DNA from: an uncultured virus (IMG/VR IMGVR_UViG_3300032050_000089)
Taxonomy: Duplodnaviria > Heunggongvirae > Uroviricota > Caudoviricetes
Virus record (IMG/VR): IMGVR_UViG_3300032050_000089
Reading direction: 5' to 3' (one strand)
DNA length: 20,000 nucleotides
Of this stretch, positions 4,551 through 20,000 are shown piece by piece; position 1 is the first letter of the stretch; every line of letters begins with the position of its first letter. Below the pieces are notes generated by a model that was not told where the DNA came from, ran no database searches, and saw only the letters and a program-made list of their open reading frames with translations. Position numbers and translations under genes: made by a program.

Positions 4551-4552
4551 TT

Positions 4553-5153: not shown

Positions 5154-5154
5154 C

Positions 5155-5346
5155 ATGTACAAGCACGGCGAACACGTAGTAAATTCACAAAACAACAAGG
5201 CTTGCACCATTATGGGAAGCCAGTCAGAGAAGATCAAGACCAAGAATGGTATGATCACCGAAGAAGTTGAGTATTTTGTTCGTTATGAGGATGGTTCGAC
5301 TGATTGGATTCCATCCGAAAACGCCAAGAAGCTTCTTATCGACTAA
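5155..5346 (+). CDS. hypothetical protein (small beta-rich)
   Basis: GGAGG RBS before the ATG at 5155. Sequence MYKHGEHVV...YFVRYEDGSTDWIP. Confidence 0.7.
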   Translation: MYKHGEHVVNSQNNKACTIMGSQSEKIKTKNGMITEEVEYFVRYEDGSTDWIPSENAKKLLID

Positions 5347-5612: not shown

Positions 5613-5619
5613 TGGCATA

Positions 5620-5696
5620 ATAGGGAACGACAAAGCACAAATCGTTCCGCCCTAACGGGAAAGCGAGGACTAGATCGCCAGTACTTCGGGTACTGT
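5620..5696 (+). ncRNA. putative small structured RNA (four tandem hairpins)
   Basis: Hairpins GGAACGA/TCGTTCC, CCC-TAAC-GGG, GCGA/TCGC and CAGTAC-TTCGG-GTACTG lie between the promoter and tRNA-Ile. Confidence 0.5.
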
Positions 5697-5700
5697 AATT

Positions 5701-5773
5701 GGGTAGGTAGTTCAACTGGCAGAACCAACCGCTTATAACGGTTGATGTGTGGGTTCGACCCCCACCCTACCCA
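5701..5773 (+). tRNA. tRNA-Ile(TAT)
   Basis: GGGTAGG/CCTACCC acceptor, anticodon arm AACCG-CT-TAT-AA-CGGTT, T-arm GTGGG-TTCGACC-CCCAC, A73. Confidence 0.92.
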
Positions 5774-5793
5774 TTTGAGGACTAAGTATAGTT

Positions 5794-5943
5794 ATGACTG
5801 ATGAAGAAAAAAAGCTAATACTTGAACTCAAGCAAGAGGTTGAAAAGATCAAAGTAAATCTTATTCTAGAGAATAGGAAACTAGATCAGATCGTTTCGGT
5901 TGTAAATTTTATTATTCAAAAGGAGAATTTAAATGCACAATAA
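5794..5943 (+). CDS. 49-aa coiled-coil hypothetical protein (below the ORF-track cutoff)
   Basis: MTDEEKKLILELKQEVEKIKVNLILENRKLDQIVSVVNFIIQKENLNAQ*, translated by hand. Fills the gap and overlaps the next start. Confidence 0.6.
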   Translation: MTDEEKKLILELKQEVEKIKVNLILENRKLDQIVSVVNFIIQKENLNAQ

Positions 5944-6241
5944 TGTTTTTACTTATCGTTGGCTTGCTGTTTTTACCGCGTTCGCTGCTCTGATTCTACA
6001 CCTTGATAACGCAAAGGCTCCGCTTGTTTGGTCATTTGCTGGACTGACTGGATTCCTGCTTGTTGCAGAAATTCGTCGGCTATCAAAGGAAGTCTGCTCA
6101 CTTGAGCGTAGCCATACTGATCGGACTCACAATGAAAATATTGATGAGCTTCGCCGTAGCATGTGGCATCAGACTGACTCGCTCCATGAGCGGATTGACC
6201 ATTGCTCAAATACTTGCTCCAAGGCAAAGACTCGTCTTTGA
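5933..6241 (+). CDS. membrane protein (two N-terminal TM helices)
   Basis: AAGGAG RBS. Hydrophobic segments WLAVFTAFAALILHL and LVWSFAGLTGFLLVAEI. Confidence 0.75.
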   Translation: MHNNVFTYRWLAVFTAFAALILHLDNAKAPLVWSFAGLTGFLLVAEIRRLSKEVCSLERSHTDRTHNENIDELRRSMWHQTDSLHERIDHCSNTCSKAKTRL

Positions 6242-6259
6242 TCTAAAGGGCAACCCCAC

Positions 6260-6285
6260 AAAACCCCGCGCAAGCGGGGTTTTTT
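6260..6285. terminator. bidirectional rho-independent terminator
   Basis: AAAA-CCCCGC-GCAA-GCGGGG-TTTTTT between convergent genes. Confidence 0.9.
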
Positions 6286-6286
6286 A

Positions 6287-6550
6287 TTAGGTTAGGAATG
6301 CTACGCTTACAGCAGCAGATGCAGTCAATCCAGTAATTCGGAGTGGTAATAAAACGGGTCCATTTGCATCTGCATCAACAAACATATTAAATTGGTTCGA
6401 TGGGGAGCCAGTGGTATCCATAAACGAAAGAGTAAGTCCGGCAGCACCAGTAGTAAGATTGCTAATCAATACAGAACGGTGCTTCGGGATTTGCCCTAAT
6501 GTCAATCCGGTGGTTGAAGATACTACAGAGACAGCTGTTTTGTTTTCCAT
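6287..6550 (-). CDS. small beta-rich hypothetical late protein
   Basis: 87-aa ORF preceded by CATAAATA 5 nt upstream. Confidence 0.7.
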   Translation of the reverse strand: MENKTAVSVVSSTTGLTLGQIPKHRSVLISNLTTGAAGLTLSFMDTTGSPSNQFNMFVDADANGPVLLPLRITGLTASAAVSVAFLT

Positions 6551-6555
6551 ACTAG

Positions 6556-6575
6556 TATTTATGTAATCATAAATA
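6556..6575. promoter_or_regulatory. divergent pair of T4-type late promoters (CATAAATA on both strands)
   Basis: TATTTATG at 6556-6563 (minus-strand promoter) and CATAAATA at 6568-6575 (plus strand). The T4 gp55 consensus is TATAAATA. Confidence 0.75.
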
Positions 6576-6577
6576 TC

Positions 6578-7300
6578 ATGATGAACTTCTTGTCCCTATT
6601 AAATGAAAAATTAACTCTTGAGTACCACAATAAACTCAATCCTATTTACTGGGATGGAGAAACGCTCAAACCACAGGTCAAAAAGACATTGACCAAGATA
6701 GGCTACAAATGGGCCAAATTTGCCAACGTCCCGGAAGAAGCTATTATTGATATCGTCATGACAGGGGGAAATGCCAATTACAATTATACAAATAATTCAG
6801 ATTTGGATATCCATCTAGTAATTGACCCCACCTTTTTTGAAATGGACAAGGATTTAATTCTTGATTATTTTAAAGATAAAAAAACAATCTGGAATCTATC
6901 TCATAAAATCAAGGTTTATGGGGCAGATGTTGAAATATTTGCACAACCCATAACCCAAGTGACCCACAAAGATCAGGGTGTTTATTCTCTACTTAATGAC
7001 CAATGGGTATCTAAACCCAAATATAAAGATCTAAATTTTGAAAAGGATAGCTTTCTCACAAAGAAAGTTGAATCCTATATGGCCAAAATAGATCATTTGA
7101 TTGAAACGGAATCAACTGATGAAAACCTTTATAGATCATTACTCAAGAAGATCAGCAAAATGCGAGATGAAGGACTTGAAACTGGTGGAGAGTTTTCTAT
7201 GGAAAACTTGCTCTTCAAAGAACTTCGTAGCCGTGGTTATATTGACAAGCTTCGCAATGCTGCTAATCGCGCACTCGACAAAGAACTTACACTGGAATAA
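6578..7300 (+). CDS. Pol-beta superfamily nucleotidyltransferase (T4-like phage type); probable start 6581
   Basis: DIVMTGGNANYNYTNNSDLDIHL (G-x-x...DxD), a third acidic residue in DVEIF, and C-terminal GEFSMENLLFKELR..GY. N-terminus MNFLSLLNE. Confidence 0.85.
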   Translation: MMNFLSLLNEKLTLEYHNKLNPIYWDGETLKPQVKKTLTKIGYKWAKFANVPEEAIIDIVMTGGNANYNYTNNSDLDIHLVIDPTFFEMDKDLILDYFKDKKTIWNLSHKIKVYGADVEIFAQPITQVTHKDQGVYSLLNDQWVSKPKYKDLNFEKDSFLTKKVESYMAKIDHLIETESTDENLYRSLLKKISKMRDEGLETGGEFSMENLLFKELRSRGYIDKLRNAANRALDKELTLE

Positions 7301-7304
7301 AACT

Positions 7305-8552
7305 ATGCACTACTTTTCTATAGACAGACAATACAAGTTTATTTTAAATTTGATAGAATCGAAGAAACAAACTCCACCAAAACGGAAACTTGGTTATATT
7401 AGTCAAAATTATGAGAGTCATAGTGGAATAGGAACTATATCTCCCGGTAAAGGCGATAAGGGAGGTGTCAGTTATGGTACCCATCAGTTTGCTAGTGCAG
7501 TTGGAACCCCCAAAGATTTTGTTGATTATATTGGTAAAAATGAACCAGAAGATTCGCCATTAAGAGCTTTGATAGGCCCAACAGATTTTGGTGATTTTAA
7601 TGGAGCGTTTGCAAACACTTGGAGAAAGTTATCGGGATCACATCCCGATTTATTAACGAACGTAGCTCAAGCATTCACAGATGTTAGATATTACGAAGAA
7701 CCTTTAAAAAATCTAAAGAAAAAAGATTCAGAATTAGGAAATCTTATTGAAACAAATGAAGGTTTGAATGAGTTGTTTTATTCTACAAATGTACAGCATG
7801 GTCAATCAGGCGGTCCACGAATATTTTTAGACGCAAGGGCTAGATGTCCAGACGGCAAAAAAAATTGTCCCTTTGCTATTACTAAAAATGTATTTGAAAT
7901 TAGAAGAGATAGAATATTAGCATCGGATAATAGTCAGGAGATAAAAAATGCTGTAACCCAATCAAGATATCCAGAAGAAGAAAAGGCTGTTACTGCTTTA
8001 TTAAAAACTACGAGAACAACACAAACACCACCCCAGACACCACCGCCACAAACAGAAAATGTACCGGAGCCACAAGTCGGTAGTGGAACATATAAAATCC
8101 AACCGGGAGATTCTTTAAGTGTCATAGCACAAAAACTATCGAAGGAACGTGGTTTTAAGATAACAGCCGACGATTTAGCTAAACTAAATGAAATACCAGA
8201 CATGAATAAAATTAGTGCTGGTCGTGAATTAAAAATTCCAGAAAATCCAAATGCTCAAAAACAAACTGCAACAGCACAAGCAGCACCAAAACAAGAACTT
8301 CCAGCAAAGCAAGAACCAAAAGAAACAAAAACGCCGGAAGATATTGTTACAATGAGCAAACAAGAACTAGCTGACAGGATGAAACAAGCAGAAGATAAAG
8401 CTGTACAAAATGCCTTTGATGTGGAAACGCAAGCTAAAGAAGCTAGAGAATCAAAAAAATCCGCTGGTATGATTGATAAGGTAAGAGCAGAAAGAGAAAG
8501 GCTTGAAGCTGAAAATAAAAAGGCTCAAGAAAATAAACAAAAAAGTAAGTAA
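7305..8552 (+). CDS. peptidoglycan hydrolase-like protein: VgrG3-C-like lysozyme domain, LysM domain and charged coiled-coil tail
   Basis: LGYISQNYES...GTISPGKGDKGGVSYGTHQFAS...STNVQHG (lysozyme-like), a PT-rich linker, and YKIQPGDSLSVIAQK...LAKLNEIPDMNKISAGRELKIP (LysM). The ATG at 7305 is preferred over the TTG at 7101. Confidence 0.8.
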   Translation: MHYFSIDRQYKFILNLIESKKQTPPKRKLGYISQNYESHSGIGTISPGKGDKGGVSYGTHQFASAVGTPKDFVDYIGKNEPEDSPLRALIGPTDFGDFNGAFANTWRKLSGSHPDLLTNVAQAFTDVRYYEEPLKNLKKKDSELGNLIETNEGLNELFYSTNVQHGQSGGPRIFLDARARCPDGKKNCPFAITKNVFEIRRDRILASDNSQEIKNAVTQSRYPEEEKAVTALLKTTRTTQTPPQTPPPQTENVPEPQVGSGTYKIQPGDSLSVIAQKLSKERGFKITADDLAKLNEIPDMNKISAGRELKIPENPNAQKQTATAQAAPKQELPAKQEPKETKTPEDIVTMSKQELADRMKQAEDKAVQNAFDVETQAKEARESKKSAGMIDKVRAERERLEAENKKAQENKQKSK

Positions 8553-9398
8553 TTATCTCGGGAACAGAGTTGGTGGATAATTTTCGCCCTTCTTCTGTCT
8601 ATCCCTCACTGCTTTAAATCCTGCTGGATCGGCTTCTAGTTCTCCATCGGAACCTAGATTAAATCCTAGACCAAGATCAGTCTGTGCATCTTCCTCTGCG
8701 GTCATTCTATCTTGTATAGAAGGCTGAGTCACCAAAGCACCAGCTGCATCCCAAACATTTCCTAATGCGGTAGCAACAGTTCCCATTCCAAGAGCAGTTA
8801 AAACATCCTTCGAAGTAAATGCTCTTCTTGGGGTTGGTGTTTGTGTTGGTTTGGCTGGAGTCATGGCAGCACTTACTGAAGTTTTTGCCTTTTCGAGTCT
8901 AGCTTCTATTCTTGCAATAGAATCATCCACTCTCTTAGTTCTGTCGCTTCCTTCTTTTCTAGGAAGTCCACGCAACAGAGTTAGGCGATCTTCTAATGAC
9001 TGTACAGAGTCTGGTGTAGGTATTGCGGTTGTTAAACGGCTAGAGCGGTCCCTTCTCAGACGAGACATTCGTTGTGGGTATGTTTCACCGAATAATGCAG
9101 TTTCAATATCTCTAATTATTGGGCCTTGAGATCCAGATTTCATGTGACCCTTACTAAAACCACCTAACATTTTTTTACGCCCTTCACTATCGATGTGAAA
9201 TACTTTAAAATGTTTTCCACCCTCTTCAAAAATTATTCTTCCTTTGAGATTAGGAGTTTTAGATTGTACTCTTTCGACTGCTTTTTTTATTTCTGCGACA
9301 TCCGCACCTAAATGATCTACTCCAAAAAAATTTACTCTACCTTCATTTTCAATAAGTAGTTCAATATCTTCAGTTAAAAATTCGGAAAATGATTTCAT
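8553..9398 (-). CDS. hypothetical protein with capsid-targeting-like N-terminus
   Basis: Starts MKSFSEFLTE, like the T4 internal-protein CTS MKTYQEFIAE. Confidence 0.8.
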   Translation of the reverse strand: MKSFSEFLTEDIELLIENEGRVNFFGVDHLGADVAEIKKAVERVQSKTPNLKGRIIFEEGGKHFKVFHIDSEGRKKMLGGFSKGHMKSGSQGPIIRDIETALFGETYPQRMSRLRRDRSSRLTTAIPTPDSVQSLEDRLTLLRGLPRKEGSDRTKRVDDSIARIEARLEKAKTSVSAAMTPAKPTQTPTPRRAFTSKDVLTALGMGTVATALGNVWDAAGALVTQPSIQDRMTAEEDAQTDLGLGFNLGSDGELEADPAGFKAVRDRQKKGENYPPTLFPR

Positions 9399-9399
9399 G

Positions 9400-9996
9400 T
9401 TATATTTTCTGTTTTTGAGTTGCCATGAATTGATCGATGTGGTCGGTGATGTGACCGCCTTTAGCTAGATTAGCCGCGATCATATCACTATTTGCTTGCG
9501 CCCACAAATTAAACTGTGGATGTGCAAAGGCCATATCTTCAAGTTGAGTATCCAAGCGCGTGAGTCTTGTTTCAACTTGAATGGAACTTCCACCAGATTT
9601 TTTATGCTTTTCTCTTAAAATTTTTCTAATTATTGGAAGTGCTTTAAAATTTGAAATTAAAGAATATGCAGCATCTTGTGATCCTTCTTGTGTTGGCATC
9701 GGCCCTTGTCTATCTCCCATTTCCCAAGACTGCATTCTTGAATTGTGCAAATGATCTTTTAGTTCATTGAATATGCTATTCGTAGAATTTTTTACATCCC
9801 TTGATTGAATATCTGAATATTGTCCAGTACCCGGAATACCTTCATATTTTTCGGAGGGTATCTCTCTACCTTTGTCATCTAAAGATACTTGGCGAGAATT
9901 GGTGTACCAAGGAGATTCAATAGCATAAGAAGGACGTACATTTACATAAGGGTCAATGTCCTTCGCTTCAAAAAGATATTGGATAAAAGTTCGCAT
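9400..9996 (-). CDS. hypothetical protein with capsid-targeting-like N-terminus
   Basis: Starts MRTFIQYLFEA. CTAAATA lies 4 nt upstream. Confidence 0.8.
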   Translation of the reverse strand: MRTFIQYLFEAKDIDPYVNVRPSYAIESPWYTNSRQVSLDDKGREIPSEKYEGIPGTGQYSDIQSRDVKNSTNSIFNELKDHLHNSRMQSWEMGDRQGPMPTQEGSQDAAYSLISNFKALPIIRKILREKHKKSGGSSIQVETRLTRLDTQLEDMAFAHPQFNLWAQANSDMIAANLAKGGHITDHIDQFMATQKQKI

Positions 9997-10000
9997 ATAT

Positions 10001-10008
10001 TATTTAGA
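10001..10008 (-). promoter_or_regulatory. T4-type late promoter (TCTAAATA)
   Basis: TAAATA core 4 nt before the ATG at 9996. Confidence 0.6.
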
Positions 10009-10023
10009 TTTACAGATCTATTA

Positions 10024-12348
10024 TCAACCTTCCATTCTAAATCTATTTCTTACTCTTCGTCTTTCAATTTCATCAGTATCTCTCGCAACCTTTGCTATAA
10101 AATCATCATCAAACGCCTTTATCGCACCAAATCCTCTGGGATTAGATCTGATTTCATCATGCACGGAATTTAATATATCGTATTCCAAATCCTTTGCATT
10201 GAAGTCTGGATGATTGTAAATTGCGAGTGCAGTGTTTTTGCGTTCTGGTTTCATGAAATTTGTTCTAACTTCATGAAATAATTGTTTATCCTTTAATATT
10301 TTTCCAAAATCTTTATGCTGTAATGCTTCGTTTCTTACCTCCTCCGAATCATGCGCTAAAGCATAAGCAATATTTCGTTTTGATATTTCTGATAAAACAG
10401 AAGGAATTCCTCCCACATCATCACTTACACTATCACGCTCATGCTGATGAAAATATGGTGTTTTGTGGAATGCATCGGACTTTGCTAATTTTATAGACAA
10501 GTCTGTAAATGCTTTCTTTAGTTGGGGATTATCTTCATGCCGTGCGCGTTCAAATACTCTGTGTAGTTCAGAACCGGGACCAATACGGTTTAATAACAAA
10601 GGTTCATTTGCCGCAGCTTCCAACACAGGAGTATTAGGAAGAGAAGTTATGGATGCCTGAGCTATTTCATCTAACATATCATTAGATTTAATAGTTCCAT
10701 CTTTTATATCATTCATTAGTTTATTGAAAGATTGTAATGATCGTTTATCATCTAATCTACTCAATTGTCCAATTAGTGATTTATGAAACGATGAATGGTT
10801 TTTGGCATTTGGATTATCGATAATTGAATCAAATACTTTATCATGGTGCGAACTTAAAGCAAATTTTATGTAGTTTTTTGCTGTTAGATCAGTTGGACCT
10901 GATCGTTCTAAATATGAATTGACGTAATCCAATCCCCTAAGAGCAAATTCTTCGTGTGGAGATTTGATTAAATGTTCAGGACTCATTAAATCCACAAATT
11001 CAAAAGCTTTATTTCTCACTGCCTTGTGCTGCGAATCTGAAAGTTTTTCCAAAGATGTCCTATCTTTTAGCAAAGATGGAACTTTTTCAAGAGCCTTTAA
11101 AACTACAGATTCGTGGGGAGATTCCATTATATCCACGCTAATCTTATCCACAAGCCCACTAATATAAGGTGTATCTTTGAATTTATAAGATTCTAATTTT
11201 CTGTGTACTTCCGGATCTTCAAGTGCTTCTAGTTGATGATGTTCAAATGGAGAAGATACCTTTTTAAATGCAGTATAGGTAGCTTCGGAAGATGAAAGTA
11301 TATCACGATCATCGTGATCACGATATAAACTTGGTTCGATATAATATTTGTAATGCTGTAATGGCATTTTTTCAGATAAATGTGAATCTAAAACATACTT
11401 GAATGCTTGTATTAATGACTTACCATTACTTTTTAAATTACTAGAGGCATATGTAACAGGCGAAGCTCTTAAGACCGTATGCTCAGGTTTCACATCTTTC
11501 CAAGAAACATATCTAAATTCACCACCTACACCATTTTCAGCACGACTTATTTTATTTTTCATATCCTCGCTATGAAATGGTTCAAGCATGATTCTGGCTA
11601 AAGGATTTTTTAAATCATGATCTCCAGCAGCAATCAAATATGCCATATGCGCTCCACCCGTAAGTGCTCTCTTGACATATTGGGCATTTTGTCCGGGTTG
11701 TTGATATCCGGGCATCTCATTATAAGGGGGTTCGCCAAATTCTCGCTCTGGGGGTTCTTGTCCCTCAATATCAACATCTGGACAAGTACCAAGTGCCATG
11801 CAGCTTGTCCATCTTGGTTTATTTGAAGACATCTCGGCAACTTTATAAGGATCTCTTGTTATGACGATCTGTAAAGGCGACCTCATAGCAACACGAACAT
11901 CATCACGATTGTATTCATCCAAGATTCGCTTTTGCTGAAAACTTCTTTCTTTATGATCTCGCCATGCTGGATGAGCTGCATCGTATGGAATGCCTTCTGG
12001 TTCTGCGATTGGTTGAGACAAAACTTTAGCAATTGAGATTGGGCGAGTGTGACCCTTTCTTACTGCCAATCCAGCTTTGAAGTCGTGAACATCATATCCC
12101 AATTTATCTAAATGATCTGCAAGATAAGCTGGTGCTGCTAACTTCAATCCTTCTGTCGGCATATCAAACACAACTGTGTCACCATTATCCATAACAGTAC
12201 CACCGCCGATTGGATTCTCCTTATCAAAAAGATGATTCGAAAAATCAACTGATCTTGTTAATCTATTATGCCAATCAACAAAGTGATCAACCCAAAATTT
12301 TTGATTGTCGGTTAGTGCTTCAGTTAAAAATTTATAAAAGGATAACAT
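10024..12348 (-). CDS. large protein with CTS-like N-terminus, PcfJ-like motif region and alpha-helical repeat C-terminus
   Basis: Starts MLSFYKFLTEA. Motif IVITRDPYKVAEMS...WTSCM...AYL...LARIML. The C-terminal half has repeated S-x-H-E/K-x-V HEAT-like helices. Confidence 0.75.
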   Translation of the reverse strand: MLSFYKFLTEALTDNQKFWVDHFVDWHNRLTRSVDFSNHLFDKENPIGGGTVMDNGDTVVFDMPTEGLKLAAPAYLADHLDKLGYDVHDFKAGLAVRKGHTRPISIAKVLSQPIAEPEGIPYDAAHPAWRDHKERSFQQKRILDEYNRDDVRVAMRSPLQIVITRDPYKVAEMSSNKPRWTSCMALGTCPDVDIEGQEPPEREFGEPPYNEMPGYQQPGQNAQYVKRALTGGAHMAYLIAAGDHDLKNPLARIMLEPFHSEDMKNKISRAENGVGGEFRYVSWKDVKPEHTVLRASPVTYASSNLKSNGKSLIQAFKYVLDSHLSEKMPLQHYKYYIEPSLYRDHDDRDILSSSEATYTAFKKVSSPFEHHQLEALEDPEVHRKLESYKFKDTPYISGLVDKISVDIMESPHESVVLKALEKVPSLLKDRTSLEKLSDSQHKAVRNKAFEFVDLMSPEHLIKSPHEEFALRGLDYVNSYLERSGPTDLTAKNYIKFALSSHHDKVFDSIIDNPNAKNHSSFHKSLIGQLSRLDDKRSLQSFNKLMNDIKDGTIKSNDMLDEIAQASITSLPNTPVLEAAANEPLLLNRIGPGSELHRVFERARHEDNPQLKKAFTDLSIKLAKSDAFHKTPYFHQHERDSVSDDVGGIPSVLSEISKRNIAYALAHDSEEVRNEALQHKDFGKILKDKQLFHEVRTNFMKPERKNTALAIYNHPDFNAKDLEYDILNSVHDEIRSNPRGFGAIKAFDDDFIAKVARDTDEIERRRVRNRFRMEG

Positions 12349-12352
12349 ACCA

Positions 12353-12360
12353 TATTTATG
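12353..12360 (-). promoter_or_regulatory. T4-type late promoter (CATAAATA)
   Basis: 4 nt before the ATG at 12348. Confidence 0.7.
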
Positions 12361-13041
12361 CTATCTTCTTCTAGACCCAACCAGCCCAGCAAAGCACAGA
12401 AGGGCAAAGAAGCCGGGAGCAGGAACGCTAATAGCCGCAGCAGCAAAGTCAATATCACTCAGGCCATCGTAGGGAAGCTGGCTTCCAAGGCTCACCAACC
12501 TCAAAGGAGGAATGTCTAGCTGCGTCGAAGAAAAATCCAAAAAATTTTCACTCTGCTCCGGAGTCACTAGAACAGGTTCTTCCTCCTCCTTCATTGCAGT
12601 CTGAATGGGAACAACAGGAACAAAGGAGGAAGGAATCTCTTCAAAAAGATCTTTTTTGTAGTAAACTAAATTATTTTCTTTCTTTTCGTTTTGAATCTGA
12701 ACCAATCTTCTTACAGACTCGGCATAGTCAAAGGAAAAGTCATTTGAAGGCAAGGATGAGGTCACATCAGCAGGAAGGCTGATCTTCTCCTCCAACCGCT
12801 CCTGAACCTTCTCCACATTGTCCAGAGCATCAATGATCTTGTCAGCAAGTTCTTTGCCAACCACAGCAACTGCAACAGCACCAGCAATGGTCATGGCAAA
12901 AAGTTTCTTTTCTAATTTACCAATCTTCTCTTCGTTAGCAATCACAGCTTTTTTGCAATTGCTGTGTTTTTCTTCTTTTTCTTTTTCAAGTTTTTCTGAA
13001 AGCTCTTCGCATCCAGAACATCCTTTGTGATTGTGTGCCAT
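12361..13041 (-). CDS. membrane protein with C-terminal PEP-CTERM-type (VPAPG) sorting signal
   Basis: GGAGA RBS before MAHNHK (13041). Coiled coil, then hydrophobic AMTIAGAVAVAVVG. Ends VPAPG-FFALLCFAGLVG-SRRR. Confidence 0.75.
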   Translation of the reverse strand: MAHNHKGCSGCEELSEKLEKEKEEKHSNCKKAVIANEEKIGKLEKKLFAMTIAGAVAVAVVGKELADKIIDALDNVEKVQERLEEKISLPADVTSSLPSNDFSFDYAESVRRLVQIQNEKKENNLVYYKKDLFEEIPSSFVPVVPIQTAMKEEEEPVLVTPEQSENFLDFSSTQLDIPPLRLVSLGSQLPYDGLSDIDFAAAAISVPAPGFFALLCFAGLVGSRRR

Positions 13042-13106
13042 AGCATCTCCTCTGTGTGGAAAAGAAGGAAAACACACCCCGTGGTATCATCTCAAACCAT
13101 TTACTT

Positions 13107-13114
13107 TATTTATA
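13107..13114 (-). promoter_or_regulatory. T4-type late promoter (perfect TATAAATA)
   Basis: Exact T4 late consensus upstream of the PEP-CTERM-like gene. Confidence 0.65.
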
Positions 13115-13251
13115 CAAATGGAACCATGGGAGGGGACCCATAGAAGAAAAAACGGCCACCAAATAACAAATCGCAAAAAAGAAAAAGAAGAACCAAAAGA
13201 TTCCTTTTTTTATTTTGGGAGGAATCTTTGGAAGGGGACCCATTTTTATTT

Positions 13252-13674
13252 TTACCCAGCAGATCTTGCGATATTTTTCAATCTTCTCGTCATGTAGTTA
13301 AAATCATCAAATTGTTCCCTCGACAAAACCATAGCAGGAACATGTGACTTTCCTTCAACACTGTGAGCTTTCATGATTCTATTCAAACCATCTGCGACAG
13401 TATATTGATCCTCTCCAGTTTCAATGGCCAACACTGGGAATGTTGTATCGGCATTTTGCATTCTCTCCACATGGTCAGGATTTTCCAAAGAATATGATTT
13501 ATGCCACCACTCTATTCCATCAGTATGCTTGATGGGAAGCATGACTGGTTCTCCAGCTACTTGATTAGCGTAATCATACAAATGCTTTACTGAATAAAGA
13601 CTTCCTTGCCCATCCCCAGTCATTTGGGAATCCCAGTTTTCTACTTCAGTAATGTATTGTTTAAAAGAGAGCAT
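13252..13674 (-). CDS. ParB/sulfiredoxin-like N-terminal domain protein with CTS-like N-terminus
   Basis: Starts MLSFKQYITE. The segment ERMQNADTTFPVL.....YTVADGLNRIMKA......VPA matches the ParB-N pattern (DGxHR variant). Confidence 0.7.
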   Translation of the reverse strand: MLSFKQYITEVENWDSQMTGDGQGSLYSVKHLYDYANQVAGEPVMLPIKHTDGIEWWHKSYSLENPDHVERMQNADTTFPVLAIETGEDQYTVADGLNRIMKAHSVEGKSHVPAMVLSREQFDDFNYMTRRLKNIARSAG

Positions 13675-13679
13675 GGAAT

Positions 13680-13687
13680 TATTTATG
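13680..13687 (-). promoter_or_regulatory. T4-type late promoter (CATAAATA)
   Basis: 5 nt before the ATG at 13674. Confidence 0.7.
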
Positions 13688-13759
13688 ACCGGGGGATCCT
13701 AAAGGGGGGACCCAAATTCATTTTTTACTTTGGAGGTGACGGGGGGACCCATGAATTTA

Positions 13760-14062
13760 TTATCGAACTATTAGATTACCATTCCAAATTTTGAGTTTTG
13801 CACCCGGAAAGAATTCTTGTAGAAGCTCTAGGAGTTCTTTTTCTTTTTCTTTTGTTAATTTTGTTGGTTTTTTGTTTCCAATAAAATTACCAGATTGAGT
13901 AATACCTTGATTTAGATTGAAGTCAGGAGCATCATCAAAATCAGGAACAAGAAAGAGAATGTCCTGAATTGGAATTATTTTTACTTGAGAAGATGCTACT
14001 ACAGGAGATGCAAGTAGAGAAATACAGAGAAAGATCACGATTAGTATTTTTGAAAGCTTCAT
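13760..14062 (-). CDS. secreted small protein (signal peptide)
   Basis: MKLSKILIVIFLCISLLASPVVA signal peptide. CCTAAATA lies 5 nt upstream (14068-14075). Confidence 0.75.
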   Translation of the reverse strand: MKLSKILIVIFLCISLLASPVVASSQVKIIPIQDILFLVPDFDDAPDFNLNQGITQSGNFIGNKKPTKLTKEKEKELLELLQEFFPGAKLKIWNGNLIVR

Positions 14063-14107
14063 GATATTATTTAGGTGGGGATCCTAGAGGGGGGACCCAT
14101 TTTTAAT

Positions 14108-14569
14108 TTAGAGTTCCTTTTTCATGTATTCATAGAACTTGAACACTGCTGTTGCAGCTGGACCTTCAATACTTCCAATTATAGGCTCACCAGTATCAAC
14201 ATGAGTTCCAATATCTTCTGCTCTACCCTGATATCTTTCATGTTCGGCTCCTGCCAAATCTAATCTTGGTGTAGGAGCTGATCCGGGAATTTGTTGCAAG
14301 TAAGGAAATAAATCTACTTTATCTCCTCTTCTAGGAGTTCCTGATTTTCTATCCATAAAAAAAGTATGAACATGACCACCATCAGTCAAAATATGAGCAA
14401 GATATCCCTCATCAGGAAATTCTGGGTGCTTCTCAATATGAGCAATATGACCAACCACGGATTCAGATTTATTTATTTTATTTTTTTGTATTGCACTTAT
14501 CATAGAACCAGATCTAGCCCAATCAGGCCAAAATTGTGATTCTGTAAGATATTGTGTGAAAGTAAACAT
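14108..14569 (-). CDS. hypothetical protein with capsid-targeting-like N-terminus
   Basis: Starts MFTFTQYLTES. CATAAATA at 14575-14582, 5 nt upstream. Confidence 0.75.
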   Translation of the reverse strand: MFTFTQYLTESQFWPDWARSGSMISAIQKNKINKSESVVGHIAHIEKHPEFPDEGYLAHILTDGGHVHTFFMDRKSGTPRRGDKVDLFPYLQQIPGSAPTPRLDLAGAEHERYQGRAEDIGTHVDTGEPIIGSIEGPAATAVFKFYEYMKKEL

Positions 14570-14924
14570 GAAATTATTTATGTCGGGGGATTGGTGTGTC
14601 GAAAAAAACGGAATAAATCGACAGGTTATATGGACATGTCGATTGGATCGACATAGGCTTCAGGATGACTCATGAAAGAATTTGGTGGGGGATCCTATGG
14701 AGGGACCCAAATTTATTTTTTACTTAGGAGGTGACGGGGGGACCCATGAAAGAATTTGGCGGGGATCCTAGAGGGGGGACCCATTTTTAAATTTTAGGGA
14801 AGTTTTTTGGGAGGGACCCTTTTGAGGTTTTTGAGGGGGGTGGGCTAGCCCCGGGGTCTGTGCAAGGTTCCACGGTCGAATCCACTACTCGGACAGGGAT
14901 ATTTCTTTCGAGAATATCGCTAGG

Positions 14925-14954
14925 TGCTCAAGTCATCGGGGCATCACGCCGATA
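14925..14954 (+). promoter_or_regulatory. repeated early promoter copy A (sigma28/FliA-like)
   Basis: TGCTCAAGTCATCGGGGCATCACGCCGATA, near-identical to 17923-17952 and 19117-19146. Confidence 0.75.
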
Positions 14955-15038
14955 TTAGTAGTGTGAGGAACGCAGCGCACGCCACACGCATTCCGCGTGT
15001 GGGTGACGCAAGCGACCTGACATTGGAGGCCACCTACC

Positions 15039-15449
15039 ATGGCAACCTACAGCGTCCACACTCTCCCGCCTGCCTTGGCCACCGCGCTCGGCAACGCGGC
15101 CAAGGCAACCTGTCCGGATCAGCCGGACGGGTCTACCTTGACTGTCACCCTCTCGGGTGAGGTCAAGGTCAATGTCGTGCGCGGTGACGCGCACGACAAG
15201 CGTACCAGTCCGATTGACTGGAAGCGCGTGGCCATGGCGTTGGCCGCGCGGCTTCCCGCCTCGCAGCGTCGTTCGTTCGTCCGTGATGTCCTCGCTGGCA
15301 TCACTAACGGCACTCTCCTCGACTTCGATAGCGAAATCGAGGCCGAGGCCAAGGCCATCGTGGCCGCTGCCAATGCAGCCAAGCCGTCCGGGCAGCAGCC
15401 CGGGCAGCAGAAGGCCAGCGTGACCGAGGCCACCATCACGGTGGCCTGA
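15039..15449 (+). CDS. hypothetical early protein
   Basis: GGAGG RBS, strong GC3 bias, first gene after promoter A. Confidence 0.8.
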   Translation: MATYSVHTLPPALATALGNAAKATCPDQPDGSTLTVTLSGEVKVNVVRGDAHDKRTSPIDWKRVAMALAARLPASQRRSFVRDVLAGITNGTLLDFDSEIEAEAKAIVAAANAAKPSGQQPGQQKASVTEATITVA

Positions 15450-15464
15450 ACCAACCCGAGAACC

Positions 15465-15488
15465 GGGAGGGGGCTTCGGCCCCCTCCC
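15465..15488 (+). repeat. intergenic GGGAGGGGG/CCCCCTCCC hairpin, copy 1 of 4 (others 16037-16061, 16530-16556, 17324-17348)
   Basis: GGGAGGGGG-C(TTCG)G-CCCCCTCCC. Each copy sits between a stop codon and the next RBS. Confidence 0.85.
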
Positions 15489-15506
15489 ACAACCGAAAGG
15501 ATAGAA

Positions 15507-15965
15507 ATGCCCTACCAAATGATTCAGCCACGCTGCATCGTCGTGACCCGCCATGCGGGTCTCGTTGAGTTCCTCCGCGAGGAGGGACTCATCACCTCGG
15601 ATACCGAGGTGGTGGCCCACGCCACCCCCGAGGCGGTGACGGGATGCCGAGTGATCGGCATCCTCCCCCTCCACCTCGCCGCCAAGGCGGCAATGGTGGA
15701 GCAACCGATTCTCGACCTTCCCCCGGAACTCCGGGGGAAGGAGTTGACTGCCGCAGAGATGCGGCAGTACTTCAAGGGGATGGAGACCTTCGTGGTCTCC
15801 ACTCCCGCCGAACTGGAGACAAACCTCCAGAAGTCGAACGAAAACGGCCATCACGGATATGGCCGTACTCTCGGCAAGTGGGAACCGAAAGAGGAGTGGG
15901 TGTTCCCCACCCCCACCGCTGCCGAGTGGCGGCGGCAGAACATCGCGGACGGGATGGCATCGTAG
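15507..15965 (+). CDS. csx16: Csx16-like (Cas_VVA1548 family) putative cyclic oligoadenylate ring nuclease
   Basis: VVTRHAGLVEFL...VVAH......VIGILPLHLAA......LDLPPELRGKELTAAEM matches the Csx16 pattern (SRHxGA..W...VIGTLPxHLAA...LDLP...RGxELS.EE). Has an extra C-terminal tail of about 50 aa. Confidence 0.75.
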   Translation: MPYQMIQPRCIVVTRHAGLVEFLREEGLITSDTEVVAHATPEAVTGCRVIGILPLHLAAKAAMVEQPILDLPPELRGKELTAAEMRQYFKGMETFVVSTPAELETNLQKSNENGHHGYGRTLGKWEPKEEWVFPTPTAAEWRRQNIADGMAS

Positions 15966-16103
15966 CCGTCCCGTCCACTTCCCCCCTCCCCCCGCAAGCC
16001 TAGTGGCTCCGGGGGCAAGGGAACGGAAGGAACCCCGGAGGGGGGAGCGTTTCCCCCCTCCATCATCGTCTTGCCCCCACAGGGGCAGAAAGGAAGGTGG
16101 ACC

Positions 16104-16520
16104 ATGAAGATGTCCACCATCAAGACGGCATACCAGTTGCTGGATGCCACCGTGCAGGATCCCACCGCAATGGCGGTGGCAATCCTCACCCTCACCCGCG
16201 CTGGGCGGGTGTACGGGGGAGTCCGCCGTGGACTCCTCTGGGTCCGGACCGGGGCGCATTGCCCCGGGGTCGTCCCCCCTCCCGAATTCGTGGAGGTCTT
16301 CAAGCGTGAGGATGATATCCTCCTCACGCTTGAGGTTCTGTCCAGCCTCGACGGCGAGGCGGACGTGACCCACCCCATCGGGTGGATCTTCAACGACGGG
16401 AGCGTCTGGCTCTCGTCGTTCTCCGGTCGGGAGTCGGCCTGTCGTTATCGGGCCTACTTCCGGGAGGCGGTTATCCGCCTCCAGCCCAAGGCGGTGATGC
16501 GCCCCGCCCCGACCCGCTGA
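16104..16520 (+). CDS. hypothetical early protein
   Basis: AAGGAAGG RBS before the ATG at 16104 (MKMSTIKTAY...). GC3-biased. Confidence 0.7.
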   Translation: MKMSTIKTAYQLLDATVQDPTAMAVAILTLTRAGRVYGGVRRGLLWVRTGAHCPGVVPPPEFVEVFKREDDILLTLEVLSSLDGEADVTHPIGWIFNDGSVWLSSFSGRESACRYRAYFREAVIRLQPKAVMRPAPTR

Positions 16521-16573
16521 CCCTCGCACGGGAGGGGGTGTAGTTCACCCCCTCCCCCAACCCAAGGAGCCAC

Positions 16574-16834
16574 ATGGCATTTTTTCGTATTGGTCTTCCA
16601 CACCCCAATGGGGTGTGGGTCTTGGAGGCTTCCGCTGACTGCACCTGTTGCAGGGGCAGCGGAACCTTCGTGGAGCGTCACGGTCCCGGCTTGAACGAGC
16701 CGATGGACTGTGACTGCGCGTTCGCTCTCCTCACTCCCGAGGAGAGCGAAGAAATTGAACGCGGTGCCGCGTTCATCGTTGAACCCGCCCCAGCGTATCT
16801 GGAGCGGATGTCCCAGTCTCATCAGGAGAATTGA
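16574..16834 (+). CDS. small putative zinc-finger protein
   Basis: AAGGAG RBS. Motif DCTCCRGSG...DCDC. Confidence 0.7.
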   Translation: MAFFRIGLPHPNGVWVLEASADCTCCRGSGTFVERHGPGLNEPMDCDCAFALLTPEESEEIERGAAFIVEPAPAYLERMSQSHQEN

Positions 16835-16837
16835 ATC

Positions 16838-17311
16838 GTGAACTTCACTACCGACCCGACCAAGGCCTACTCCATCCTCACCGCCATGGCAGCGAAGGGG
16901 GGCCGTACTGCCCCCTTCGCCCTCTCCCTCGCGGGAGCGATCATCCAGAACCGTGTCTCCCCCAAGCAGGGGGAGTGGATCGACAAGTTGTGCCGCCCCG
17001 TCGCCGGGGAGGCTGAGTCGATCTCCCTGCCCCGCATCGTCGCGGCCATGCGCCGTGCCGACCGCAAGGCTCGCAAGTTCGTGATCCTCGTCGGGGATCT
17101 CACGATCACGGGCCGCTACACCGCCCTCGACTCGTTCCGCGCGAACCCGGCCAACCGTGGCTCGGTCTCCTTCAGCGTCGGTGAGTACGGCGATCCCGCG
17201 TCCAAGTGGTTCGGGCGCATCAACGCGCAGGGTGAGTTCGCCCCCGGCAAGGACTCCACAGAGGCTTTCGTGGCCTATCTCAAGGCGTGGGAGGCGAACC
17301 TCCCCGAGTGA
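16838..17311 (+). CDS. hypothetical early protein
   Basis: AGGAG RBS, GTG start, strong GC3 bias. Motifs LAGAII..RVSPKQGEWIDKL and WFGRINAQGEF. Confidence 0.75.
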   Translation: MNFTTDPTKAYSILTAMAAKGGRTAPFALSLAGAIIQNRVSPKQGEWIDKLCRPVAGEAESISLPRIVAAMRRADRKARKFVILVGDLTITGRYTALDSFRANPANRGSVSFSVGEYGDPASKWFGRINAQGEFAPGKDSTEAFVAYLKAWEANLPE

Positions 17312-17378
17312 TACAATGGCGACGGGGAGGGGGGCGTTCCCCCTCCCCTACCCTTCAACTTTGAAAGGAAATTTTCCG

Positions 17379-17750
17379 ATGGCTCTCAATTACAATCTCG
17401 ACAACATTCTCAACTCCGGTTCGGTGTGCTTCCGCGACGATGGCACGATGTGCCCAGATACTTACCACCTGATCTGGGCCACCATGGCCCTTGATCTCGG
17501 CAAGATCACGAAGGAGAACATCAAGGAGTGGATGGTGCGCCTCAAGTTCCTCTCCATCGTGGACTCCGAGAATGGTATCTGGGATACCATCAGTGAGGAA
17601 GTGGTGACCATCCACATCGGCCTCTCCACCAACGTGTCGAGCACCACCCGTGCTCAGTTCAAGAAGAAGATCATCAACGGAGTCGAGCGCAACGCTCTCA
17701 ACCGCGTTCGCTACGCTGCGAACAACCCCACCGTGGTTCAGGTGGGCTGA
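17379..17750 (+). CDS. hypothetical early protein
   Basis: GAAAGGAA RBS before the ATG at 17379 (MALNYNLDNI...LIWATM...IGLSTNVS). Confidence 0.8.
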   Translation: MALNYNLDNILNSGSVCFRDDGTMCPDTYHLIWATMALDLGKITKENIKEWMVRLKFLSIVDSENGIWDTISEEVVTIHIGLSTNVSSTTRAQFKKKIINGVERNALNRVRYAANNPTVVQVG

Positions 17751-17798
17751 TTCATGCTCCAATCCGCTCCCCCGCGCCTGTATGGGCGGGGGTTTGCG

Positions 17799-17878
17799 GA
17801 TCTATCAGCACTGAGTGGCCCTGCCACTCAGTGCTGAGGCCTCAGCATTTAGAGCTTTGCTCTAAATGCTGATAGGTC
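17799..17878. repeat. double-hairpin palindromic element, copy 1
   Basis: GATCTA-TCAGCACTGAGTGGC-CCT-GCCACTCAGTGCTGA-GGCC-TCAGCATTTAGAGC-TTT-GCTCTAAATGCTGA-TAGGTC. Confidence 0.9.
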
Positions 17879-17922
17879 CTGCGGCGTGGTTTCGTTTCGT
17901 TTTTTTCTGGATTCTTTCGTAG

Positions 17923-17952
17923 TGCTCAAGTCATCGGGGCATCATGCCGATA
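17923..17952 (+). promoter_or_regulatory. repeated early promoter copy B (sigma28/FliA-like)
   Basis: TGCTCAAGTCATCGGGGCATCATGCCGATA, preceded by the T-rich TTTCTGGATTCTTT shared with copy C. Confidence 0.75.
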
Positions 17953-18012
17953 TAGTATATGCAAGCACTTCGCTTGTACGGTAGCCGTCCGGAACGGCAA
18001 GGGAATAGAATC

Positions 18013-18903
18013 ATGAACGCATCGCTCTCGCTCGCTGTCCTGTCCGATACCATCGTCAAGGGCAAGCCGATCAACTGGGTCGGTGTCCGCGCCGCCGCAC
18101 TCGCTGCCGAGCGCGATTGGGCGCAGGGCGCACCCATGCCCGAGGGGTCGGGGCCGATCCTCACGGCCCCCACGGGTAACCTCAAGATGACGAAGGGCGA
18201 CGGCCTCCCAGTCTATTCGCTCTCGCTCGCTCCCGCTGACCTGTCCGGGTACGAAGTCTGCCCGTGGCGCACGGTCGATTGCACCCGTGGTTGCATCGGC
18301 CATCGCGCTGGTAATGCGCGGTTCCCGTCCACCATGCGTGGTCGCGTGAATCGCACTATCGAATTGGCAGAGAATCCGTATCGGTTCTTCCGTCGCGTGC
18401 TCCGCGACCTGTCGAACGCACGCAAGCGCGGCCCGTTTGCCTACCGTGACAACGCATTCTCCGACATTCCGTGGGGGTCGATCCTCCCGACGCTCCACAC
18501 GTTCGCGGCGCAGCACTACAATTACACGAAGAGTGTGCAGATGGCGTTCGCTTCCCTGCGGGTTCGCAAGGAACACGCCATGTGTGGGGTTCGTGGTGAT
18601 TCGCTCATGCACCACACGCTGTCGTTCACTGGTGATAACATTCGGGAGTGCATGATGTACCTTCGCGCGGGTGGCAACGTGGCTGTGATCATGAACAAGC
18701 GCAAGGCGGATCCGGTTCCCGATACCGTGTGGGGGTTCCCTGCGGTGGACGGGGATGCCAACGACCGTCGCTACATGGATCCCGCCGGATCCGTGGCCGT
18801 CCTGACCCCGAAGGCGGGACTCGACCGCACTCGCAAGTGGGTGGTGCACCCGTGCGAGACTGGATCGGATTCCGCCGAACAGCGGATCGAATCCATCCAC
18901 TAA
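18013..18903 (+). CDS. GP88-family phage protein
   Basis: NLKMTK...YSLSLAPADLSGYEVCPWRT..CTRGCI...AG; R.NAFSDIPW; YNYTK; HHTLSFTG; GGNVAV; DGD.ND.RYMDP. Confidence 0.8.
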   Translation: MNASLSLAVLSDTIVKGKPINWVGVRAAALAAERDWAQGAPMPEGSGPILTAPTGNLKMTKGDGLPVYSLSLAPADLSGYEVCPWRTVDCTRGCIGHRAGNARFPSTMRGRVNRTIELAENPYRFFRRVLRDLSNARKRGPFAYRDNAFSDIPWGSILPTLHTFAAQHYNYTKSVQMAFASLRVRKEHAMCGVRGDSLMHHTLSFTGDNIRECMMYLRAGGNVAVIMNKRKADPVPDTVWGFPAVDGDANDRRYMDPAGSVAVLTPKAGLDRTRKWVVHPCETGSDSAEQRIESIH

Positions 18904-18956
18904 CGAACTATTCCCCCAGCCGCCCCCGTCCCGGAGAGATCCGGGGCGGGTGGTTT

Positions 18957-19037
18957 GATCTATCAGCATTGGGTGGGCAAGCCACCCAATGCTGATGCCT
19001 CAACATTTAGAGCATAAGCTCTAAATGTTGATAGATC
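18957..19037. repeat. double-hairpin palindromic element, copy 2
   Basis: GATCTA-TCAGCATTGGGTGG-GCAAG-CCACCCAATGCTGA-TGCC-TCAACATTTAGAGC-ATAA-GCTCTAAATGTTGA-TAGATC. Confidence 0.9.
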
Positions 19038-19116
19038 GCCCCCGTCCGATAATGCTGGTTCTCGCTGGTTTCAATGCCGTTTGAAACCACAAGTTTGTTT
19101 CTGGATTCTTTGCGGT

Positions 19117-19146
19117 TGCTAAAGTCATCGGGGCATCACGCCGATA
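19117..19146 (+). promoter_or_regulatory. repeated early promoter copy C (sigma28/FliA-like)
   Basis: TGCTAAAGTCATCGGGGCATCACGCCGATA, i.e. TAAA-N16-GCCGATA. Confidence 0.78.
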
Positions 19147-19241
19147 CTATTAGTGTGGTGAGCGTGTTGCTCATCACGGGATGGCAACCTAACGCCCCCA
19201 ACGCACTCCGCGTATGGGTGACCAGTCTGAAAGGTACTACC

Positions 19242-20000
19242 ATGGCTCACATGATCTTCAAGAACGATTCCGTCGCGGTCGCACAGCAGCAGGCGTGGCA
19301 CGGCCTCGCCAAGGTGCTGCCCGATACCTTCACGCCGCAGCAGGCGCGCGACCTCGTCGCCCCGTGGGATGCGTTGGAAACCTGCGATCTGACCATCAAC
19401 CTCGCGGACGGCTCCAAGCAGTCGTGCGACGAGTTCAAGGTCATCATCCGTTCCGATGACCGCAGCGTCCTCGGGATGCACTCCTCGGGGTACACCATGC
19501 TCCCGGTGCAGTCGTTCTTCGACCTCGCGTATGAGTTCCAGTCCGGTTCCGACGAGGTCGAGGTCGAGACCGCTGGCACCCTGCGCGGCGGTCGCTTGCT
19601 GTTCCTCGCCCTTGCGGGTAACACCGTGGATATCGGGTCGCGCGGCGACTCGCTCTGCCCGTACCTCATGCTCTCGACTTCGTTCGACGGCACGACCCCG
19701 ACCCGCGTCGATCCGACCGCGATTCGTCCGGTCTGCTACAACACGGTCAGCGCGGCATGGGCTTCGTCCCGCGCTGGCATGAGCCTCAAGCACACTTCCA
19801 AGGCCGATGACCGCATGGACAGCATTCGCAAGGCCATCCTGAACTGGCGCATGGGCATCGATGCCCTGACCACCAAGGCGCGCGGCATGGAGGCCGCACC
19901 TGTCCGCAGCCGCGCGGATGTTCAGGAGTACTTCCTCCGCGCGTTGGAGTCGATCTACGGCAAGTTGCCCTCGCCGTCCACGACCAACAAGCGCGAGCGT
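19242..20000 (+). CDS. DUF932 (TIGR03299 phage/plasmid-like) protein, 3'-truncated
   Basis: Hand translation: MAHMIFKNDS...AWHGLAKVL...VETAGTLRGGRLLFLAL...PYLMLSTSFDGT...IRPVCYNT...KHT. AAAGG RBS. Absent from the ORF track because it runs off the window. Confidence 0.85.
   Translation, partial: MAHMIFKNDSVAVAQQQAWHGLAKVLPDTFTPQQARDLVAPWDALETCDLTINLADGSKQSCDEFKVIIRSDDRSVLGMHSSGYTMLPVQSFFDLAYEFQSGSDEVEVETAGTLRGGRLLFLALAGNTVDIGSRGDSLCPYLMLSTSFDGTTPTRVDPTAIRPVCYNTVSAAWASSRAGMSLKHTSKADDRMDSIRKAILNWRMGIDALTTKARGMEAAPVRSRADVQEYFLRALESIYGKLPSPSTTNKRER

Follow-up and report, generated by a model that had tools for sequence, protein, structure and literature searches.

Background

Viral ring nucleases are the main known way in which phages escape the cyclic-oligoadenylate signalling of type III CRISPR systems. 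To our knowledge, only AcrIII-1 (Crn2) has been tested as an anti-CRISPR, and assays of Csx16 have been confined to the cellular enzyme. Here we describe a stand-alone csx16-like gene at positions 15507 to 15965 of a 20,000-nucleotide (nt) stretch of DNA (the window) from an uncultured virus of the Caudoviricetes, IMG/VR record IMGVR_UViG_3300032050_000089, and we weigh whether its product is a homodimeric ring nuclease for cyclic tetra-adenylate (cA4) that is used against type III CRISPR, a reading that we consider rather likely and that is drawn by analogy.

Csx16 has been reported as a cA4-specific ring nuclease in vitro (Hoikkala et al. 2025, PMC12409355), as a preliminary description of the gene, made from the letters of the window, had rightly stated. 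The His, Arg and Asp/Glu residues of Csx16 are compatible with ring-nuclease function, and the protein has a partial likeness to DUF1874 (PMC8284326). Among 28,114 phage genomes of the Millard database, AcrIII-1/Crn2 was counted in 36, Csx20 in 4 and Csx16 in 2 (PMC12409355), and Csx15 was not observed in phages (PMC13148439). Both the ring-nuclease activity of Csx16 and the existence of phage Csx16 are therefore already published, and the window gene is a further example of them and introduces no new principle. The preliminary description had presented the gene as an anti-CRISPR from a different family, a claim to novelty which is unsupported in view of the two phage genomes already published with Csx16; the difference in family is itself narrowed by the partial similarity of Csx16 to DUF1874/AcrIII-1 (PMC8284326) and by our fold search, which put two DUF1874/Crn2 structures first. 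A full-text literature search, of partial coverage, found neither a description of a virus- or plasmid-specific Csx16 clade nor a test of a viral Csx16 as anti-CRISPR, and either may exist.

With CRISPR-associated Csx16 (PMC12409355) the window protein shares the Pfam family and a domain of about 90 amino acids (aa), the T/S-R-H motif, the second His, the G.LP and RGKEL motifs, a predicted homodimer as in the published AlphaFold3 model and the same weak structural link to DUF1874. It differs in that it scores under the cut-off of the model TIGR02620, falls in a separate clade (Shimodaira-Hasegawa-like approximate likelihood ratio test, SH-aLRT, 94), is encoded without cas neighbours and carries an extra tail of 55 aa, its activity being assigned here by analogy. 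Like the published phage Csx16 (PMC12409355), it is the product of a stand-alone viral Csx16-type gene for which an anti-CRISPR role is proposed by analogy; if the archaeal viruses Drs3 and PhiF3 are the published carriers, the window gene would be the counterpart in a bacterial T4-like phage, only distantly related to theirs. Unlike AcrIII-1/Crn2, the viral cA4 ring nuclease of the DUF1874 family, it has no DUF1874 Pfam match, and identity in structural alignments is 11-18%. Crn4b, the phage and plasmid subclade of Crn4 (PMC12830947), resembles it as a mobile-element subclade, distinct from a CRISPR-associated one, in which some members have terminal extensions without an assigned function; the Crn4b extension is N-terminal, however, and its fold and family are unrelated.

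The window protein is a member of the Csx16 family

The csx16-like open reading frame (ORF) encodes 152 aa from an ATG start, with a Shine-Dalgarno-like AAAGGA 7 nt upstream, and is divided as follows.

15507..15965, plus strand: csx16-like gene
15540-15794, plus strand: Csx16 core, aa 12-96
15801-15962, plus strand: C-terminal tail, aa ~99-152

All three motifs by which the preliminary description had recognised the protein are present in the translation (VVTRHAGL, VIGILPLHLAAKAA and LDLPPELRGKELT), and the search with Csx16 hidden Markov models which it had proposed gave a match far beyond chance: Pfam PF09652 (Cas_VVA1548) aligns to residues 12-96 with an E-value of 4.6e-19 and 68.9 bits against a gathering cut-off of 25, covers profile positions 2-89 of 91 and is the sole family listed at E<=1. 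The DUF1874 Pfam family did not match at E<=1, and a PHROGs search of the protein returned no family. Judged from its sequence, the assignment to the Csx16 family is solid at the Pfam level; on the same grounds the protein is not a typical CRISPR-associated Csx16.

Residues T14, R15, H16, H38, L53, P54, L57, R76, G77, E79 and L80 are invariant in an alignment of 38 sequences. In a wider set, R15, H16, H38, G46, G51, L53, P54, L57 and R76-L80 are common to the window protein, 18 cellular sequences of clade I (defined below) and 39 viral sequences. The polar residues R15, H16, H38, K78 and E79, of the kind named as compatible with ring-nuclease function (PMC8284326), show little or no variation across these cellular and viral sequences, and the window protein has all five.

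A Csx16 lineage of viruses and plasmids

A search of 5.8 billion proteins gave 42 matches to the window protein, all with PF09652. Eight of them (P0002-P0009, 65-86% identity) are full-length including the tail and the remainder are mostly domain-only proteins of 94-120 aa; that full length and all invariant residues are kept in nine variants at 65-86% identity suggests purifying selection on the sequence. A scan of viral contigs with the window protein alone returned no relatives, an alignment query being required. With the alignment, 69 pattern matches in IMG/VR gave 39 viral loci, and 49 in GTDB genomes gave 27 loci. Both scans relied on one peptide pattern taken from relatives of the window protein, so that the sampling leans toward its clade.

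In a quick maximum-likelihood tree of 105 rows and 97 columns, from which the partial or doubtful rows L060, L072 and L073 were left out, clade I consists of 19 rows, from bacterial genomes only (SH-aLRT 94). The second group (clade II) has 86 rows and holds all 39 viral sequences, the nine-member clade with the tail (SH-aLRT 90) and 5 genome rows. To describe gene context, ORFs of at least 200 aa in 19 genome loci were searched against Pfam. Cas families were found in 11 of the 15 clade I loci, with the Cas10 palm domain in 4 of them and further Card1, Cas6, Cas1, RAMPs, Cmr3, NE0113 and APE2256, and in 0 of the 3 clade II genome loci with ORFs of this length, the fourth, L048, having no such ORF. 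With TIGR02620, the NCBIfam equivalog model for Csx16, 9 of the 10 clade I sequences tested score 100-123 bits; the exception, L055, scores 41 bits and lies in a phage-like context. Models for Cas10/Csm1 and Cmr2 (TIGR02578, TIGR02577), which as controls matched in 6/14 and 5/14 known genomes, found nothing in 40 viral records, namely the 39 with Csx16 homologues (6 at least 90% complete by CheckV, 4 with terminal repeats) and G001, an 81-kb IMG/VR record discussed below.

Five records of a plasmid collection also carry homologues. The closest, on pDEIPR02 of Deinococcus proteolyticus (54% identity), has no cas gene within 12 kb; its surroundings are an extended series of small hypothetical genes, all in one orientation, that also includes three SSB genes, a RES-domain gene and a lytic transglycosylase gene. 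The 'Csx16' of Allomeiothermus pMESIL02 (L075) is 671 aa long, matches in three stretches and likewise has no cas gene nearby. A tblastn search with the window protein (E<=1e-5) against 50,697 phage records gave no match, and a cultured-phage collection gave weak matches only, to Methanobacterium viruses Drs3 and PhiF3 (E 0.6 and 0.02, 33-35% identity), viruses of methanogenic archaea in which the matching proteins are annotated 'putative CRISPR-associated protein'. Our guess is that Drs3 and PhiF3 are the two phage genomes counted in PMC12409355.

By sequence comparison, then, the window protein belongs to a Csx16 lineage of viruses and plasmids that is separate from the CRISPR-associated clade. 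The statement that the phage co-opted a host off-switch is not supported in this form: the protein lies in the virus and mobile-element clade and not in the CRISPR-associated one, and transfer may have gone in either direction. The 39 viral contigs together with the plasmid copies suggest that this mobile-element lineage is far commoner than the count in cultured phages implies. Models curated for CRISPR-associated Csx16 miss it, and the copy on a T4-like phage offers a concrete protein for testing.

Predicted fold, homodimer and C-terminal tail

AlphaFold2, run on a 38-row alignment, returned a model with a mean predicted local distance difference test (pLDDT) score of 83.7 and a predicted template modelling score of 0.67, in which a beta-alpha-beta core (residues 10-98) exceeds a pLDDT of 90; we read this confidently predicted core as Rossmann-like. 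The core is followed by a helix (100-112), a poorly defined segment (113-137) and a second helix (138-147). Exhaustive structural alignment of the model to 48,161 representative chains ranked two DUF1874/Crn2 ring-nuclease structures first. A simple offset would place H16 near His495, the residue mutated in 8y7g.

When two copies were modelled together, the homodimer score was 0.70 and that of the best of 3 controls 0.00; 20 of 30 proteins solved as one-chain pairs reach the mark set for a homodimer, and of 23 solved as single chains 1 does so. At least 41% of the contacts agree between runs and the partner pLDDT is at least 70. The predicted interface is formed by the last strand (93-100) across the axis, by residues 55-66 and by residues 103-126 of the tail, that is the first helix and the segment after it. 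A PDB sequence search with the family profile found no Csx16 structure; its only matches, designed ankyrin proteins, are spurious and arise through a PLHLAA-like motif. As this search found none, it is less likely that the predictor merely reproduced a known dimer; DUF1874 dimers, however, are solved. The modelling thus supports formation of a homodimer by the window protein.

The C-terminal tail of 55 aa (residues ~99-152) lies outside the Pfam match and is conserved only in the nine-member clade. It matched no Pfam family, and the ESM Atlas (aa 98-152) gave no usable neighbour. A HMMER search of the tail against 1.84 billion representatives found its own clade and two repeat or spectrin-like proteins, matches which we discarded as spurious, being due to a short W..P..W motif. 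In the models the tail is predicted to extend the dimer interface, and we infer that it would strengthen the dimer. The extra tail that the preliminary description had noted is thus real, and the function which it was thought to add takes shape as this predicted extension of the interface only.

The gene lies in a GC-rich block of a T4-like phage

The gene stands to the right of a sharp compositional step.

14830..14900, no strand: compositional junction in the guanine-plus-cytosine (GC) profile, ~38% GC to the left and ~62% GC to the right

Positions 1-4315 of the window are 100% identical to the end of G001, which encodes T4-like gp32, baseplate hub and wedge, neck proteins, large terminase, sheath, tube, portal, prohead protease, scaffold, major capsid protein, a UvsW-like helicase and the late sigma factor gp55, with a capsid protein ~56% identical to those of T4-like Synechococcus myoviruses. 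This overlap and these genes make the window part of a T4-like myovirus, a distant relative of the cyanomyoviruses, and the source is a freshwater T4-like phage. G001 gave no Csx16 match, which is uninformative since the record ends at window base 4315, before the gene. Blastn of 14900-20000 and of 7000-14800 against the 50,697 phage records gave no match.

The remark that cas genes and arrays are absent from the window agrees with our searches: none of its 27 ORFs has a cas Pfam family, and no family of regularly spaced repeats, as in a CRISPR array, is present. The check on the rest of the genome that had been advised points the same way, TIGR02578 and TIGR02577 (Cas10) having 0 matches in the 81 kb of G001, which is estimated to be 45% complete; at ~45% completeness, a phage-borne type III locus elsewhere can be called unlikely and not more.

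GC content is 0.392 for 1-14850 versus 0.621 for 14851-20000. The block measures at least 8.3 kb at ~62% GC (window 14830-20000 and L046:9300-17695) and falls to ~50% at the far end of L046, a JGI contig of 20,863 nt; outside it the phage has 28-44% GC over ~96 kb, including all 81 kb of G001. We regard the AT/GC junction as real. L046 shows a single mismatch over the 14,494 nt of window 5507-20000, junction included, and extends 3.2 kb further right at 48-65% GC to its end. Contigs of three DNA runs not flagged as a possible source were aligned on 10000-20000. Among them a 1204-nt contig from an independent freshwater run of 2025 (X11, record 5) bridges 14553-15756 with 0 differences; those of the other two runs break beside the repeats at 14667-14796 (X12 at 14777/14889, X13 at 14850) and, on account of this position, neither bridge nor contradict the junction. 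The stretch 13500-16500, which spans the GC step, has a word share of at least 0.82 in 19 DNA runs from 17 studies, 8 of these runs being flagged as possible source and 11 runs from 8 studies unflagged. Contig depth in the block is ~2x that of the AT-rich part in 3/3 runs, a difference that GC bias might explain, as might additional copies of the block at other places. Searches of the 8.3 kb found no integrase, transposase or replication gene. The block could show how large AT-rich phages acquire ready-made accessory modules.

A candidate anti-type III CRISPR ring nuclease and its alternatives

In the reading that we favour with moderate confidence, a host type III complex would detect phage RNA, whereupon Cas10 would make cA4; the phage protein would bind cA4 in a site formed across the dimer and cut it to linear products, and cA4-dependent effectors of the Csm6/Csx1/Card1/Can type would never be activated or would be switched off. 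By keeping these effectors inactive the protein would be an anti-type III CRISPR. Expression would presumably fall early in infection, as the preliminary description assumed in speaking of an early cassette, and the host would have to possess a cA4-signalling type III system. The proposal of a viral ring-nuclease anti-CRISPR thus remains the best reading of a stand-alone Csx16 member on phage DNA without cas context, with the activity taken over by analogy.

Several observations weigh against this reading. The window protein reaches 25.5 bits with TIGR02620, over the same stretch as the Pfam match and under the cut-off of 46.35, and all other members of its lineage that were tested stay below this cut-off as well (13/13 viral, 3/3 clade II genome and 2/2 tail-clade sequences, at 17-41 bits). 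The assayed Csx16 probably came from the CRISPR-associated clade and not from that of the window protein, whose activity is for this reason extrapolated over ~35-40% identity. Foldseek of the AlphaFold2 model against the PDB returned nothing at E<=0.001, and in the exhaustive alignment all structural Z-scores are below 5 at 11-18% identity, weak matches by which common ancestry with DUF1874 is only suggested. The single RNA run aligned (X20) covers only scattered short pieces of the stretch, none of them on csx16, which speaks neither for nor against expression. The block around the gene is foreign in composition and its right end lies beyond the sequence seen; the gene may serve the block and not the phage. 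A more far-reaching version, in which an undescribed mobile-element Csx16 lineage (39 viral contigs and conjugative plasmids) is joined to a recently acquired, portable counter-defence cassette of at least 8.3 kb and a dimer-clamping tail, is doubtful in our view.

That the gene belongs to a foreign GC-rich element, either a hitchhiking mobile element or a captured cassette, and serves this element, or is a passenger without a role for the phage, is in our view unlikely, even if the ~62% GC of the block against ~38% for the phage (28-44% throughout G001), its own repeated upstream element and hairpins, both absent from G001, the doubled contig depth in 3/3 runs and the occurrence of its GP88 and DUF932 genes in many unrelated phages would all suit such an origin; there is no integrase, transposase or replication gene in 8.3 kb, and both parts are found together in the 19 DNA runs of 17 studies. 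As the enzyme of a captured cassette would still act in the infected cell, this explanation bears on ownership more than on mechanism. An assembly error that joined the AT-rich and GC-rich halves, leaving the gene off the phage, has very little probability: the GC step does adjoin the repeats at 14667-14796, where the contigs of 2/3 DNA runs break, but the independent 1204-nt contig crosses 14553-15756 with 0 differences, L046 has the same junction with 1 mismatch in 14,494 nt, and a stretch made up of AT-rich and GC-rich parts in about equal measure has a word share of at least 0.82 in 19 runs of 17 studies.

Other explanations accept a phage gene and concern what the protein does. It might bind cA4 or another cyclic oligonucleotide with little or no turnover and so act as a sponge, for which we see a fairly low probability. 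Csx15, likewise a predicted ring nuclease and related, proved to sequester cA4 well as a sponge and to cleave it very slowly (PMC13148439), many positions distinguish the mobile-element clade from the assayed type, and the tail enlarges the predicted dimer interface and might assist in retaining a ligand. Against this, neither clade shows variation in the Arg-His pair, the second His or the Lys-Glu pair, in keeping with a catalytic site that has been retained. A role outside CRISPR, in another nucleotide signal (CBASS, Thoeris or Pycsar-type) or in phage regulation, is improbable. It draws on the facts that the virus and plasmid clade is never beside cas genes in the loci scanned and fails the CRISPR-associated equivalog model, through which the substrate of the clade is at no point tied to type III by context; on the other side, those of its relatives that have been characterised are specific for cA4, cA4 ring nucleases come first among the structural neighbours and the signature residues are conserved. 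Cleavage of cA4 by a dimeric, anti-CRISPR Csx16 stays the reading that we favour.

Organisation of the GC-rich block

Every gene in the block is on the plus strand. Its other features, including those of L046 beyond the window, are the following.

14902-14972, 17900-17970 and 19094-19164, plus strand: three copies of a 71-nt repeated upstream element (repeat family D2, alignment A3), candidate promoter/operator
15039..15449, plus strand: first ORF of the unit, 136 aa, no Pfam family at E<=0.1 and no PHROG
15465..15488, plus strand: 10-bp GC hairpin with UUCG loop and no U-tract, between the 136-aa ORF and csx16 (-26 kcal/mol, z -3.07)
16037..16061, plus strand: 10-bp GC hairpin without U-tract, downstream of csx16 (-23.6 kcal/mol, z -2.81)
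16104-16520, 16574-16834, 16838-17311 and 17379-17750, plus strand: four small co-oriented ORFs, no Pfam or PHROG match
17799-17855 and 18957-19013, plus strand, with a third copy at L046:16725-16816: repeated strong terminator-like hairpin (D5; -33.4 kcal/mol, z -4.62)
17959..18903, plus strand: GP88-family gene directly after element copy 2 (PF17338 E 2.1e-17; phrog_1617 E 3.6e-34)
19074..20000, plus strand: DUF932-family gene after element copy 3, start probably at 19242, running off the window (PF06067 E 1.5e-22)

In the 71-nt element the 5' part is rich in T and a core of ~29 nt, AAGTCATCGGGGCATCA.GCCGATA, hardly varies. The element is absent from G001, and its core is absent from IMG/VR as an exact pattern; the core shows no fold beyond that of shuffled sequences (z -0.6), and a scan for the sigma-70 consensus did not call the element. 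We also considered a T4 MotA box and an N4 hairpin promoter and dropped both, spacing and fold being unfit. The preliminary description had placed csx16 second after a repeated promoter; the repeat is real and csx16 is indeed the second ORF after copy 1, while the element is a candidate promoter only, uncalled by the sigma-70 scan. The first 20 nt of the 136-aa ORF (15039-15058, ATGGCAACCTAC...) recur with 80% identity at 19181-19200, following copy 3, in a frame that ends at its fourth codon. This recurrence suggests duplication of a promoter-leader module as the origin of the units.

Among the four small ORFs, that at 16838 has two homologues near the csx16 gene of the viral contig L007, the nearest viral homologue, among whose csx16 neighbours Pfam recognised no family. 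The 86-aa product of 16574-16834 has a CxxCxGxG-like cysteine motif (CCRGSG ... CDC), which we take to resemble the zinc fingers of DnaJ type. The third copy of the terminator-like hairpin, beyond the window, was found by blastn. Relatives of the GP88 protein occur in Pelagibacter, Xanthomonas and Mycobacterium phages; the DUF932 gene is complete in L046 (E 1.7e-26), which beyond the window encodes a WYL_2-domain protein and further ORFs without a family.

In four unrelated loci, a csx16 gene of clade II has a GP88-family (PF17338) gene at a distance of 0.25-5.4 kb.

Window 17959-18903, plus strand: GP88 near csx16
L029:1855-2562: GP88 near csx16
L047:1796-2449: GP88 near csx16
G015 (L020) 11090-11617: GP88 near csx16

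Only 2 of the 39 viral records contain PF17338, and on so weak a linkage we do not claim GP88 and csx16 as a functional pair.

The AT-rich part of the window and further observations

The left 14.8 kb of the window, at ~38% GC, carry a GMP-reductase-like gene, a pyrimidine-dimer glycosylase gene of the DenV type, a VgrG3-C/LysM lysin gene and several genes known to PHROGs only, besides a cluster of tRNA genes.

Window 3938-5774: five tRNA genes, Arg-TCT, Gln-CTG, Gly-TCC, Asn-GTT and Ile-TAT

G001 ends inside this cluster, at window base 4315. Between minus-strand genes in the AT-rich region 13199-14822, an intergenic repeat of ~56 nt with GGGGATCC...GGGGGGACCC occurs in at least 4 copies (families D1 and D6), and the assemblies of two runs break within this region. 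The 9-mer GGGGGACCC is found 5x on the plus strand of the window and 0x in the 81 kb of G001.

The csx16-like gene is at least 5 GC points above its 5-kb flanks in 27 of the 39 viral loci (L007-L045), for example 0.47 versus 0.32 in L034 and 0.52 versus 0.39 in L020, an excess that may stem from amino-acid composition or from repeated recent transfer. Finally, some relatives have further domains or partners: L052 is a 499-aa fusion of Csx16 with Card1 (CARF and endonuclease) that adjoins Cas6 and a CARF-adenosine deaminase; L061 joins Csx16 to TPR in a protein of 882 aa; and the 94-aa gene of L051 has directly upstream of it a gene for 329 aa that include a second VVA1548 domain, beside a serine recombinase.

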